Shown: one piece after another, positions 38,109 through 48,580 of the stretch
How positions within the stretch are numbered: the first letter of the stretch is position 1
Layout: each line of letters starts with the position of its first letter
IMG/VR virus record: IMGVR_UViG_3300042402_001868
Coordinates: 64,001-128,000 of that record
Origin: a virus
Length of the DNA stretch: 64,000 bases
Direction: 5' to 3' (one strand)
Program-made: the position numbers and the translations under genes
The notes under the pieces: model-generated
Told to the model about the DNA's origin: nothing
The model's database searches: none
Seen by the model: only the letters and a program-made list of their open reading frames with translations

Positions 38109-38200
38109 TGGCGGAAGACGGAGGAGTCGAACCCCATCCCTGTTAAGAGAACCTGGTTTTCAAGGCCAGTCGCGGGACCAACCCCACTGCATCATCTTCC
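38109..38200 (-). tRNA. tRNA-Ser(UGA), atypical 8/4 fold
   Basis: Loop CTTGAAA; 8-bp acceptor, 4-bp T stem, long variable arm; GCCA end. Confidence 0.85.
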
Positions 38201-42717: not shown

Positions 42718-42791
42718 TGGCGTACCCACTAGGACTTGAACCTAGACTGACGGTTTTGGAGACCGCGATGCTGCCATTACACTATGGATAC
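42718..42791 (-). tRNA. tRNA-Trp(CCA)
   Basis: GCGGT-CTCCAAA-ACCGT; GCCA. Confidence 0.95.
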
Positions 42792-42974
42792 TCAACACAC
42801 TCTTTAGAATGTGTGTATCAAAGCACTCTAAAATACTTAGGCTGCCTGTTCTTAAAGAATGCTTTAATACGCTGTAATTTTTCATCTCACACAAGAGACT
42901 CTATCCTACAGGCCGCCCGTTTGTTTATTTTTTAAAGTGCTTTAACAGGACCTCGTTTCCTTGAGCACTAAATG

Positions 42975-43003
42975 AAAAACCCTGGAGTGTTTAGTTCCAG
43001 GGT
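42975..43003 (-). terminator. Intrinsic terminator (candidate attenuator) upstream of tRNA-Trp
   Basis: CCCTGGA-ACTAAACAC-TCCAGGG followed by TTTTT. Confidence 0.75.
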
Positions 43004-43028
43004 CCTTTGGGTAGAATACAATTGTACT

Positions 43029-43142
43029 TTACACAGACCCTGAGTCTCCTGGAATGCTATTCACGCGACCGTTCGCATGTGACCAGGCTGATACCTGGGT
43101 AAACATGGATTTTGTTTGCAGTGAATAGTTATGTTTTTTCAT
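43029..43142 (-). CDS. Candidate attenuator leader peptide MKKHNYSLQTKSMFTQVSAWSHANGRVNSIPGDSGSV (37 aa)
   Basis: Lies between a consensus promoter and the terminator; single Trp codon at 43085-43083. Confidence 0.55.
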   Translation of the reverse strand: MKKHNYSLQTKSMFTQVSAWSHANGRVNSIPGDSGSV

Positions 43143-43152
43143 ATTAGTCTCT

Positions 43153-43181
43153 ATTATAGTTTATTTATGATTGTGTGTCAA
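43153..43181 (-). promoter_or_regulatory. sigma70 consensus promoter
   Basis: TTGACA-N17-TATAAT, 10 nt upstream of the leader ATG. Confidence 0.85.
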
Positions 43182-43282: not shown

Positions 43283-43468
43283 TTTGATAACAATACTGCT
43301 GTGTGTTTAAAGGTTCCTGCTGTATTTCTACACCAGCATCCTTCCAACAGCATGTATGACTGTGACTAGCAGTCTGCCGCAACTTTCGTCCGCTCAGCGG
43401 CCATTGGATTTATAGTTCCCCAGCAGTTGGGCTCTCAGTCAAAGAATTTTTGACACATTGTTATCAAA
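43283..43468 (-). ncRNA. Unknown structured RNA candidate B (~186 nt)
   Basis: 12-bp perfect terminal stem enclosing about five hairpins. Confidence 0.5.
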
Positions 43469-44654
43469 CAGCACTAGGTTTGAACACAGCGTCGTAGTCA
43501 GTGCCACGCATGCTGTCAAGCAGTTTAACATATTGTCGGTAATCATCATAGAGCTTTTGGTCAAACACAGTGGTTTTTCCTAGCCCTGTAATTATATTGT
43601 ATAACTCTTCTCCCCATAGATTATATGGATATATCTGTCCAAGACGAACCGACTCCGGCCTCCGCAACCAATCTACAGTTTCTATCCAGTCTACAAGACG
43701 TTTTAAGTCTTGAGGAGGTGCTGATTCCATGGTCAAACAAGGTGTACCAGACACCGTGGTTATTCTTAAATCTACTTCACGACTTTTAGCATAATCTACC
43801 AACGCCGGTAAACTGTACACACTTGCGTGTTGCAAGGTGTGATTGATGTTTCTCACTGCCCCTGGTAATGCCTCTTGAAGGAGAATCATATTTGCAGAAA
43901 TTTCCTCCCAGCGGCTAGGGTATCTTAGATAATCATTCATAGCCCCCACACCTTCGAGGCTCACGCTGATCCATACATTTGTAAATAATTTTAACTTGTC
44001 CACGAGAACCGGCGGTACACGAGTGAGATTGGTATTAAATTGCAATCTCACATCGGTGTTATTACTGGCAATCAAAATATCTAATATTTTCCAAGTGCTT
44101 GGCAGTGGAAAGGGTTCGCCGCCGCTGATGTCAATACTCACAGCATCCTTGAGTTTTTCAGTTAAAAATTCAATGTATGCAGGATTTTCCCACCACTTGT
44201 CTGGTTGTGGGTGCTGGTGTATCATATTGATGCGATCAAATGCCTCAGGGTTTTGGCCACGTTCCTGATGCCATGCACTGCTGGCATAAGTGCCGCACAT
44301 GATGCATCTTAAATTGCAGTGATTACCCAGGCGTATTTCAAAGTTGTAGATGGGATTATCTACACTCGGAGTAGTGTGAGTTTCTGGATGCAATTCGTTG
44401 GCTCTTTGTCTCAACGAAGTATATCCAAGATCTTCTTCTCGGAAACATTTTACGCATCCAACATGGCGAATTCCTTGATCAAAATCTTTAAGAATTGCAG
44501 TGCGTACATTGTCATTGTACCCTTGATATTGATCCCATCGGTATTCAAGAGACTGGTCACCTTCGGGGTACCATTGACAGCAAGGTGTTAAAACACCTTG
44601 CCATGTTATTCCCAATCCATGATTAACCATGGAGCATGTTATTTTTTCAGCCAT
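43464..44654 (-). CDS. Radical SAM protein with N-terminal SPASM-like motif
   Basis: C..G..TPCC..CVKC; CNLRCIMC, GGEP, NTN and SLEG. Confidence 0.9.
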   Translation of the reverse strand: MAEKITCSMVNHGLGITWQGVLTPCCQWYPEGDQSLEYRWDQYQGYNDNVRTAILKDFDQGIRHVGCVKCFREEDLGYTSLRQRANELHPETHTTPSVDNPIYNFEIRLGNHCNLRCIMCGTYASSAWHQERGQNPEAFDRINMIHQHPQPDKWWENPAYIEFLTEKLKDAVSIDISGGEPFPLPSTWKILDILIASNNTDVRLQFNTNLTRVPPVLVDKLKLFTNVWISVSLEGVGAMNDYLRYPSRWEEISANMILLQEALPGAVRNINHTLQHASVYSLPALVDYAKSREVDLRITTVSGTPCLTMESAPPQDLKRLVDWIETVDWLRRPESVRLGQIYPYNLWGEELYNIITGLGKTTVFDQKLYDDYRQYVKLLDSMRGTDYDAVFKPSAV

Positions 44655-46716: not shown

Positions 46717-46724
46717 AAAATCTA

Positions 46725-46939
46725 CTATATTAAAAAATACTAAAGGAACCATTGTGCATCTATGTCTACCTATACAACCGTCTTGTATAGGCCTGCACGG
46801 TCATTACTGCCTACATGCTCCGCCGCTTTTCTGGACATTTCTGCCCGGTTTCATAGACCTAGATTGAGCGTGGGCGGCCCCACTGTCCTCGCCTTAGATC
46901 CCTAACGGTGTAGGTAACCTTTAATACATTTTAATATAG
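46725..46939 (-). ncRNA. Unknown structured RNA candidate G (215 nt)
   Basis: ~20-bp terminal stem; GGGCA-GAAA-TGTCC and CCTATACAA/TTGTATAGG hairpins. Confidence 0.5.
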
Positions 46940-46973
46940 CAACCCTTGCGGGCTACTACAAGAAAAACTTAAC

Positions 46974-47138: not shown

Positions 47139-47146
47139 CCTCCAAT

Positions 47147-47172
47147 AAAAAACCCGCTTAGTGCGGGTTTTT
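47147..47172. terminator. Bidirectional intrinsic terminator
   Basis: AAAAAACCCGC-TTAGT-GCGGGTTTTT. Confidence 0.85.
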
Positions 47173-47198
47173 ATAAATGTAATACTTTTGTTTACATT

Positions 47199-48098
47199 TT
47201 ATGCAACAAACGGAGTGTACTCAATTCCTGTTGTTGCTAACCCTACTAATCCAATTGTGGTTTCAAAAGCTGCCAACTCACTTGCGGCTACTAAAACATC
47301 TGCTTGGCTCAAATTGCTACTAGTCATCCAAGCTGTGTAATCGGTAACCTGGGTCAATGTAGCATCTGTACCAAATACGTTTTTGTAAACATGCTTGATA
47401 AATGTTTCATTACTGACACCACCAGCATCTGTTTTGTAAGTGTCTGTGGCCAATAATGCTGTTGCTAGTTCTTTGTTGGTCCATCCTGAATCAGCAAGGT
47501 GTATACCAATGCCTTTGTATGCGTTGGTTACGTCAGCTGTGCCAAGTGCGGCTGCCAACAATGCGTATACATCGCCGGCACGGCCTGCGGCATCATAAGC
47601 AACGGCCTTGTCAGTGAACACCACACGCTCATGGTCAGCAAGATTGAATTCCATGTTAGAAACTAGAGTACTTGCCAAGGTAACCTTAGCGGCAGTTTTA
47701 GTTGTGGTGAACTCTGTGCTTGCACCGCCCATGGTGTAAGTGTCAACACCTGCGGTACCAGTGACATCTACAACAACGTCAACGGTGCCATCACCTGCAC
47801 GACCTGTACCCACTACGCCGAATGTGGCAACTTTACCTAGTGTGCCAACAGTGGCCACTGTAACGATCAAGTTGTTGGCTACCGTGCCGCCTAATGCTGT
47901 TCCAGCAAGAGTGATTGTATCACCTGCTACATAGCCGCGACCTGCACTTGCGGCAAGGCTGTCTAATACAACGGAATATACGCCGTTGGTTTTTGTAACA
48001 TCAAATGCGGCCTCAACTCCTGCACCACCTGTTAATCCAGTGATGTTTTGATAGGTAGCGTTTACTGCTTTGTCTTTGATTGTAATTGTTGTTGTCAT
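47199..48098 (-). CDS. Thr/Ala/Gly-rich surface-protein-like ORF with DUF4214-like C-terminus
   Basis: GYVAGDTITLAGTALGG beta motif; ERVVFTDKAVAYD..VYALL.AA..SNETFIKHVYKNVFG..LVAASE. Confidence 0.7.
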   Translation of the reverse strand: MTTTITIKDKAVNATYQNITGLTGGAGVEAAFDVTKTNGVYSVVLDSLAASAGRGYVAGDTITLAGTALGGTVANNLIVTVATVGTLGKVATFGVVGTGRAGDGTVDVVVDVTGTAGVDTYTMGGASTEFTTTKTAAKVTLASTLVSNMEFNLADHERVVFTDKAVAYDAAGRAGDVYALLAAALGTADVTNAYKGIGIHLADSGWTNKELATALLATDTYKTDAGGVSNETFIKHVYKNVFGTDATLTQVTDYTAWMTSSNLSQADVLVAASELAAFETTIGLVGLATTGIEYTPFVA

Positions 48099-48156: not shown

Positions 48157-48157
48157 A

Positions 48158-48186
48158 GAAAAAGGGCACAAAAATGCCCTTTTTTT
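48158..48186. terminator. Intrinsic terminator after tmRNA
   Basis: AAAAAGGGCA-CAAAAA-TGCCCTTTTTTT. Confidence 0.85.
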
Positions 48187-48506
48187 GGTGGTTTCTGTTA
48201 CGAGGTATTTCCTACCCTAGGCTGAGTTCAGGCAGCCAAAGCGAACTGTTCGTCGTTTGCATTTACGTGTTTTGCTTCTCCGACCGGGAGACCCCTGTCC
48301 TAACGGCTTCTACATTGCCGGACTGTCCATTTCCGTACTCTTGACCCAATCGATATCTATGTCAGGCCCATCAAAAACACACTAGAACTAAGATTTTCGC
48401 AGTCAAGTTTTAGAGTACTCGTACTACGCCAATGTGCTTATGGTGGACCTGCCGGGAACTGCCCCCGGGTCTTGAATCCTTTTCTGTCTACTTCATACAG
48501 TCTTAA
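48186..48506 (-). ncRNA. ssrA: Two-piece (circularly permuted) tmRNA, tag ANDEQFALAA
   Basis: T-arm CCGGG-GGCAGTT-CCCGG and AGGTCC-ACCA (ends 48441) precede the GGGCCTGAC coding piece (starts 48369); tag ORF 48260-48228. Outer ends approximate. Confidence 0.92.
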
Positions 48507-48580
48507 CTTGTATTTAAACATATCTTCGAATTATTGTCAACCTCTAATCACAGCATAATTACATACAGCAAGGACAACAT

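Follow-up and report, generated by a model that had tools for sequence, protein, structure and literature searches.

Can a phage adjust the supply of the tRNAs that it encodes to the speed at which ribosomes translate? Phage tRNA genes are usually seen as constitutive codon-usage helpers or as spares against tRNA-cleaving host defences and, to our knowledge, control of tRNA levels by phages has hardly been described. The question is raised by a locus of a lake jumbo phage, in the IMG/VR virus record IMGVR_UViG_3300042402_001868, of which we analyzed a stretch of 64,000 nucleotides (nt; positions 64,001 to 128,000 of the record, hereafter the window), where a short open reading frame (ORF) and an intrinsic terminator precede genes for tRNA-Trp and tRNA-Ala. 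A sequence-only reading of this locus had proposed a ribosome-sensing switch of the trpL type, responding to ribosomes stalled at the single Trp codon of the ORF or at one of its four TCA (Ser) codons. Our analysis makes it fairly likely that the phage tRNA array is headed by a transcription attenuator of the ribosome-mediated, leader-peptide kind, with two states and several codons sensed. The core of the earlier proposal stands, since conservation extends to the ORF as well as to the antiterminator and the terminator, whose helices covary. Its trpL-type architecture does not stand, and neither does a restriction to Trp or to tRNA-Trp and tRNA-Ala. A full-text search of the published literature found no description of an attenuator controlling phage tRNA genes.

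A promoter, a short leader ORF, and a terminator ahead of tRNA genes

All coordinates are positions within the window, and the switch and both tRNA genes lie on its minus strand. In the order of transcription, the features are:

43181-43153, minus strand: sigma-70 promoter (TTGACA, 17 nt, TATAAT), with the -35 box at 43181-43176 and the -10 box at 43158-43153, matching the consensus at 12 of 12 positions
43142-43029, minus strand: leader ORF, 37 codons and a stop, lacking a Shine-Dalgarno sequence
43005-42975, minus strand: intrinsic terminator, with the 5' arm inside 43005-42996, the loop at 42995-42987, the 3' arm at 42986-42980, and the T run at 42979-42975
42971-42793, minus strand: element B, a structured RNA occupying the ~180-nt spacer between the terminator and tRNA-Trp
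42791-42718, minus strand: tRNA-Trp (CCA), the first putatively gated gene after element B
42712-42638, minus strand: tRNA-Ala (UGC), following tRNA-Trp

The perfect promoter, the 37-amino acid leader with its single Trp codon, the terminator, and the succession of tRNA-Trp and tRNA-Ala behind it are all found where the sequence-only reading had placed them. Promoter sites matching the consensus at 12 of 12 positions occur only twice within the 13.5-kb tRNA region, here and at 42062-42034, the latter corresponding to the separate promoter that had been noticed for the next tRNA block. The terminator consists of a 7-bp G+C-rich stem with a 9-nt loop and a T5 run ending at 42975 (stem and T run together span 43002-42975; -14.3 kcal/mol when folded alone); it was missed by a consensus scan because the loop limit of the scan was 8 nt. 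Besides its single TGG codon (43085-43083), the leader ORF contains four TCA codons. The whole module occurs as a single copy in the 156-kb IMG/VR record containing the window.

In the window, the ATG is located 10 nt past the -10 box, which predicts a 5' untranslated region of only ~0-4 nt. All 41 members of the family described below likewise have a strong sigma-70 promoter, with a spacing of 6-10 nt between the -10 box and the ATG (6-7 nt in most of them). With such a spacing transcription should start on the AUG itself or only a few bases from it, so the leader mRNA is predicted to be leaderless or nearly so.

A family of leader modules in lake phages

A scan of viral contigs for the terminator pattern alone, with the ORF disregarded, retrieved 35 stretches representing 26 non-identical upstream contexts, and every one of the 26 has a promoter-proximal ATG and a short ORF that ends just ahead of the terminator. 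A looser scan, in which the three bases before the stem were relaxed and a promoter and an ORF were then required, yielded 41 members. The family comprises at least 41 copies, no two of them identical, which group into 22 clusters at 70% identity and all stem from lake-phage contigs. The relatives of the window are lake or freshwater phage contigs of up to ~350 kb, some of which encode a GOLLD RNA and a permuted transfer-messenger RNA (tmRNA); in relative L056, the GOLLD RNA (213 bits, L056:3393-3857) lies ~400 nt upstream of the leader module. A scan of 185,579 species genomes of bacteria and archaea with the exact terminator pattern gave 19 matches, of which 18 are unrelated terminators and the sole family member is found in a 2-kb contig binned with a Flavobacteriales metagenome-assembled genome, which we do not take as evidence of the host. 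With this one binned contig as the only member that the pattern retrieved from those genomes, the module looks phage-borne. DNA and protein searches of public phage records returned distant relatives only, none of them informative on the leader.

All 41 members keep the frame open from a promoter-proximal ATG over 32 to 57 codons, and a Shine-Dalgarno sequence is absent from all 41 leaders. The first in-frame stop occurs 24-34 nt ahead of the terminator stem in every member; in shuffled sequences, the first stop falls within the observed 15-40-nt interval in ~5% of cases per lineage. The sequence-only reading had named conservation of the leader ORF and of its Trp codon in related phages as checks: the ORF is present throughout the family and the Trp is kept in 40 of the 41 leaders, as the sole near-invariant residue.

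Mutually exclusive antiterminator and terminator helices

Three further elements, all within the transcribed leader, concern its folding:

43043-43035, minus strand: 5' strand of the antiterminator, UCAGGGUCU, ending 3 nt ahead of the stop codon
43098-43083, minus strand: small hairpin formed by CCAGG and CCUGG around a loop, the Trp codon being part of the 3' arm
43128-43121 with 43064-43057, minus strand: long-range helix around the small hairpin, in the predicted fold

The complementarities listed by the sequence-only reading do exist, including that between 43043-43035 and the 5' arm of the terminator. In both the minimum-energy fold and the nascent-RNA fold, TCAGGGTCT (43043-43035) pairs with 43005-42997, and the leader folds better than shuffled sequences (z = -4.6; 0 of 200 shuffles equally good). 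As the terminator and the antiterminator share the CCC of the terminator arm, they are mutually exclusive. When nascent RNAs were folded from the AUG to the terminator 5' arm, member by member, this CCC paired with the 3' end of the ORF in 40 of 41 members. The antiterminator complementarity exceeds that of shuffles with a summed log10 p of -36.9 over 24 lineages.

Covariation supports both helices, in agreement with the stem covariation that had been proposed as a further check in related phages. In an anchored pair count over 44 distinct contexts, each position of the 7-bp antiterminator core is paired in 40-44 of the 44 contexts, and three antiterminator positions show compensatory changes, all of them outside the terminator stem, such as position +3 (C-G 35, U-A 5, U.G 2, G-C 1) and position +4 (C-G 22, U-A 11, U.G 5, G-C 2). 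The pair variants include GGGUCC/GGACCC, GGGUCU/AGACCC, GGGUUC/GAACCC, and GGGUG/CACCC, and in slid controls the pairing collapses once the partner is shifted by one or two bases. The terminator stem itself carries two compensatory pairs in relative L017. Codon listings of the members further show that the GGGUC motif occurs in two different reading frames, hence the constraint acts on the RNA level. The end of the antiterminator 5' strand ranges across members from 6 nt past the start of the stop codon to 22 nt before it, which means that the stop always lies within the antiterminator loop and that the frame runs through the 5' strand.

The upstream half of the leader departs from what had been proposed. 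In a trpL-type arrangement, the CCTGG containing the Trp codon would pair, as segment 1, with the downstream TTCCAGG, as segment 2; this pairing is neither predicted nor conserved. The predicted partner of CCTGG is instead the CCAGG located upstream (43098-43094), with a summed probability of ~3.0 of 3, and 36 of 40 members have the UGG paired with a sequence 8-14 nt upstream. The long-range helix that surrounds this hairpin varies in sequence among members while its complementarity is kept (as seen by eye in the folds, uncounted). In the default folds of the members, we found no conserved partner that would sequester the antiterminator strand, from which we predict that untranslated RNA is antiterminated by default and allows read-through. 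Such folds argue for a two-state logic, with the ribosome either on the antiterminator strand or off it, and not for the four segments of trpL.

Codons of a putative sensor window match the tRNAs encoded downstream

Before the corresponding test, we fixed a sensor window of 12 codons, extending from 15 to 4 codons upstream of the antiterminator strand. It corresponds here to:

43088-43053, minus strand: putative sensor window, AWSHANGRVNSI, 12 codons including the Trp codon (43085-43083)

The amino acids of the sensor window match those of the first tRNA block at 0.487, against 0.372 in permuted pairings (p = 2e-5), and the codons do so under strict wobble rules (0.404 against 0.314, p = 2e-5). 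Removal of the Trp codon leaves the amino acid match in place (0.488 against 0.384, p = 2e-5), the rest of the ORF shows none (0.371 against 0.366, p = 0.40), and the whole ORF accordingly a small effect (0.409 against 0.374). Conversely, coverage of the first six or fewer tRNAs by the sensor window is 0.744 against 0.556 in permutations (p = 1e-5), while the 12 codons immediately upstream of it give 0.421 against 0.426 (p = 0.56). Reduced to 11 deep lineages with one representative apiece, the data give a median p of 0.001 for the match between sensor window and tRNAs. Two leaders devoid of the conserved Trp are illustrative: that of L161, with no Trp at all, precedes an array for Tyr, Glu, Phe, and Leu, tRNA-Trp being absent over 6 kb, and its sensor window is rich in those residues; that of L063 precedes Arg, Leu, and Leu, in a locus that ends after 707 nt. 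These data suggest that several codons are sensed, Trp being the commonest, and not Trp alone.

The module heads a tRNA array at every locus. The first tRNA is Trp, or Ala followed by Trp, in about half of the loci, and elsewhere Tyr, Cys, Lys, Phe, Leu, Arg, or Asp. A Trp-specific attenuator with 1:2 / 2:3 / 3:4 pairing logic, controlling tRNA-Trp and tRNA-Ala only, can account for the near-invariance of the Trp (40 of 41), for the complementarities in the window, and for the presence of tRNA-Trp as first or second gene past the module in 12 of ~24 loci. We nevertheless find it unlikely, given that the same module stands before arrays beginning with seven other tRNAs, that the match between codons and tRNAs survives the removal of Trp, that the leader has one Trp codon and no tandem run, and that the UGG is paired upstream and the antiterminator strand left free of any conserved partner.

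A possible mode of operation

The features described above suggest how a ribosome-mediated attenuator could operate at this locus. The short frame, which sequence features suggest is translated in spite of the lack of a Shine-Dalgarno sequence, would have its AUG at the transcription start or a few bases downstream of it. Upon emergence of the terminator 5' arm, the last codons of the frame (UCAGGGUCU) would pair with it, forming the antiterminator by default. A fast ribosome would reach the stop inside the antiterminator loop and cover or unwind the 5' strand, whose occlusion would allow the terminator hairpin to form and transcription to end at ~42975. Behind a lagging ribosome, the antiterminator would stay intact and the polymerase would read into element B, tRNA-Trp, and tRNA-Ala, a read-through that would ancestrally have extended into the whole tRNA block. 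The lag would most likely occur over the 12 codons that precede the antiterminator and that contain the near-invariant Trp and the amino acids of the tRNAs that follow, and the outcome would be a negative feedback of decoding capacity on tRNA supply. Both this direction of regulation and the nature of the signal are what the arrangement of the leader leads us to infer. It is about an even prospect that this multi-codon leaderless frame reads, codon by codon, whether the tRNAs encoded downstream are limiting and opens the terminator when they are, that it could also detect the cleavage of tRNAs by host defences, and that it evolves by rewriting its ~12 control codons when the content of the array changes.

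Lake metatranscriptome contigs cover the leader, reaching only to 43130. Contigs from two studies end at 42974-42976, in the T run, others cover just the terminated unit (~170 nt), and still others bridge the terminator, one fragment with adapters at both ends spanning 42894-43024. Since such contigs cannot give starts, ends, or levels, may include DNA carry-over, and are uninformative for the parts that they leave uncovered, they provide a weak hint, fitting a mix of terminated and read-through RNA.

Alternative explanations

A nascent-peptide arrest sensor of the TnaC or SecM kind could also involve a short frame with a conserved Trp. In that case, a small molecule or factor would make the ribosome stall through the Trp of the nascent chain, and the place of the stall would determine whether the terminator or the antiterminator forms. 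Known arrest peptides have Trp among their key residues, and in our family the Trp often has Ser next to it and is retained in two leaders without a following tRNA-Trp (L039 and L122). However, the peptide is barely conserved besides Trp, as a multiple alignment of the leader peptides retains only the start Met, the Trp (Ser usually next), and one Gly, and searches of Pfam and PHROGs gave no family match for it. In addition, the distances that a fixed stall site would have to respect vary among members, from 12 to 32 residues between Trp and the stop and from ~36 to ~76 nt between Trp and the antiterminator strand. An arrest peptide is thus improbable here.

The leader ORF might alternatively be an independent gene for a small protein, followed by a leaky terminator, and the upstream pairing would then only stabilize the 3' end of its mRNA. 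The unit does have its own promoter and terminator, a further promoter lies right after it at some loci, and some RNA contigs cover it alone. The substitution pattern between close pairs speaks otherwise: changes are distributed over codon positions 1, 2, and 3 as 35:35:42, with 25 synonymous and 57 non-synonymous codon changes, whereas the same genome pairs show 20:18:98 (80 synonymous and 36 non-synonymous) for the neighboring radical-SAM-like gene and 14:7:42 (36 and 12) for the nucleosidase gene. This even spread and the excess of non-synonymous changes indicate that selection maintains an open frame, not a protein. A frame selected for its openness and not for its content has the look of a regulatory leader and argues against a functional small protein. 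Moreover, a helix that only stabilizes the mRNA would not be expected to overlap the terminator arm, exclude the terminator, and covary, nor the GGGUC motif to be retained in two reading frames, nor the unit to head a tRNA array always. We consider this explanation quite improbable.

In an RNA-only switch or small RNA, the frame would be incidental and the 5' domain would bind a ligand or an uncharged tRNA, the UGG recognizing the 3' CCA as in T-boxes. The long-range helix that varies yet stays complementary, the invariant UGG, and the ~170-nt terminated RNA in metatranscriptome contigs would suit such an element. Against it, the frame is open in every lineage, from a promoter-proximal AUG to a stop in the antiterminator loop, the UGG is predicted to be base-paired and not exposed, and Rfam, including Trp_leader (RF00513) and T-box, gave no match at E <= 1 in 42792-43181, or in the relatives. 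As it cannot explain a match between codons and tRNAs limited to one part of the ORF either, we regard it as very improbable. Finally, a mobile promoter/terminator cassette that senses nothing and spreads by recombination, like the promoter-stem-loop units of T4-type phages, would agree with the recurrence of the same terminator stem after unrelated genes and with the shuffled gene order near the module among relatives, but it leaves the open frame, the stop placement, the antiterminator covariation, and the codon-tRNA match unexplained and is hardly credible.

The ribosome-mediated attenuator that we favor has itself to be weighed against several observations. The near-invariance of its terminator is not specific to the switch, since the same stem also occurs after unrelated structural genes in these phages; besides, members were gathered with exact patterns for the terminator, so that it looks more conserved than it is. 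Of the 26 loci, between two and five have an extra promoter after the terminator, so that their arrays do not wholly depend on read-through. The match between codons and tRNAs is mostly carried by differences between clades and, when arrays are permuted within clades, it is not significant (p = 0.07). The leaders of L039 and L122 bear a Trp with no tRNA-Trp within 3-6 kb downstream, from which Trp may do more than report the supply of tRNA-Trp and may have an additional role. Lastly, translation must rely on leaderless initiation because there is no Shine-Dalgarno sequence, and the 5' untranslated region in the window may be ~3 nt instead of 0.

As a separate observation on this terminator type, the stem CCCTGGA / TCCAGGG with A-rich loops ends unrelated, probably structural, genes in many lake-phage contigs (L071, L074, L077, L080, and L091 among them). 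A recurring TTGGC..TAAATA motif, which might be a phage-specific promoter, often comes after this stem.

Element B, putatively gated genes, and genomic neighborhood

Element B, which separates the terminator from tRNA-Trp, has 21 of its 42 predicted pairs supported by compensatory changes in 10 relatives. Its parts are a hairpin whose AACGAG loop is conserved, a likewise conserved GGGCGG motif, a long helix whose apical insert varies, and, beside the tRNA, a 3' hairpin; it matches no Rfam family. In nearly all relatives it stands directly before the first tRNA, which is tRNA-Cys in L017. As judged from its position, and with no sigma-70 promoter detected inside it, element B would be co-transcribed only on read-through. 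More generally, the stretch that separates the terminator from the first tRNA lacks a strong sigma-70 promoter at ~20 of 26 loci. In some relatives, the module heads a small protein gene and a structured RNA. A conserved ORF of 51-60 amino acids with a Shine-Dalgarno sequence is found between the attenuator and element B in L017, L036, L042, L051, L059, L061, and L068; its family matches are all below threshold, the best being phrog_20536 (unknown function).

Downstream of the two tRNA genes, the window contains an insertion relative to L033 and L034, where the module heads one uninterrupted block:

42614-42072, minus strand: MTA/SAH nucleosidase-like gene (180 amino acids), inserted between tRNA-Ala and tRNA-Ser

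The 12/12 promoter at 42062-42034, which follows this gene, is also new relative to L033 and L034. With this arrangement, the switch of the window would directly gate element B, tRNA-Trp, tRNA-Ala, and the nucleosidase-like gene. In most relatives of the nucleosidase gene, tRNA-Trp is located elsewhere, and one 156-kb public phage has the gene in another context. We also observed that the nucleosidase-like gene is directly followed by tRNA-Trp in most relatives and that gene order in the arrays is heavily shuffled.

Several other features of the window, the first five of them on the minus strand, deserve mention. A tRNA-like gene missed by ARAGORN (38113-38200; tRNA-Sec-like in Rfam, 36.9 bits) has, by eye, a UGA anticodon and a long variable arm, and is probably a tRNA-Ser(UGA), the reader of the four TCA codons of the leader. 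In front of three tRNA genes, strong promoters stand 7-9 nt from the first base, at 42062-42026 (Ser), 38024-37986 (Leu), and 50674-50637 (Met), a spacing that places the transcript start at, or next to, the mature 5' end and leaves essentially no leader for RNase P. A permuted two-piece tmRNA is encoded at 48157-48554 (108 bits for the Rfam tmRNA_permuted model and 81 bits, just below threshold, for beta_tmRNA), as also in L035. Just upstream of tRNA-Met, a 396-amino acid protein (43464-44654), radical-SAM-like by eye, has almost no relatives in deposited phages, the best ones being found in two Vibrio jumbo phages (23% identity). A G+C-rich intergenic stretch (46720-46940), between tandem promoters and tRNA-Asp, looks like another structured RNA. 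A weak match to Trp_leader at 47144-47215 turned out to be a plain terminator.

Comparison with known attenuators

The module resembles the attenuators of amino acid operons (E. coli trpL, hisL, pheL, and leuL) in having a short upstream frame, a terminator whose 5' arm has an alternative upstream partner, a stop placed such that a finishing ribosome blocks the antiterminator, and control codons related to the product. The multivalent ilvGMEDA and thr leaders, in which several codon kinds are involved, are the closest to it. Unlike in all these attenuators, the targets here are phage tRNAs and a structured RNA instead of biosynthetic enzymes, there is no conserved 1:2 pairing, read-through is the predicted default, and the leader has a single Trp codon and a predicted near-leaderless start with no Shine-Dalgarno sequence.

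With T-box riboswitches the module shares a conserved UGG and would share the reporting of tRNA status by a choice between terminator and antiterminator; however, T-box leaders are untranslated, bind tRNA, and have a specifier loop and a T-box sequence, none of which is found here, where an open frame is conserved instead. The TnaC leader of the tryptophanase operon is also a short peptide with one critical Trp that controls downstream termination, but it does so through Rho and with a fixed Trp-Asp-Pro spacing to the stop, in contrast with the intrinsic terminator and variable spacing of the lake-phage leaders. In mycobacteria, leaderless polycysteine short ORFs have been described as cysteine-responsive attenuators of operonic protein genes (10.1101/834739). 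As presented in that report, they are, as predicted for our leader, leaderless short ORFs placed first in a polycistronic transcript, with translation speed setting downstream expression; the ORFs it describes are runs of one codon type, unlike the mixed codons, the covarying intrinsic terminator and antiterminator, and the phage tRNA genes of the lake-phage module (10.1101/834739).

If our interpretation is true, a phage gauges translation speed and adjusts its tRNA supply by feedback, and the textbook mechanism of amino acid operons has been applied to a new class of targets in a stripped-down, two-state, leaderless form, of which the family offers natural variants, with differing control codons ahead of differing tRNA sets.

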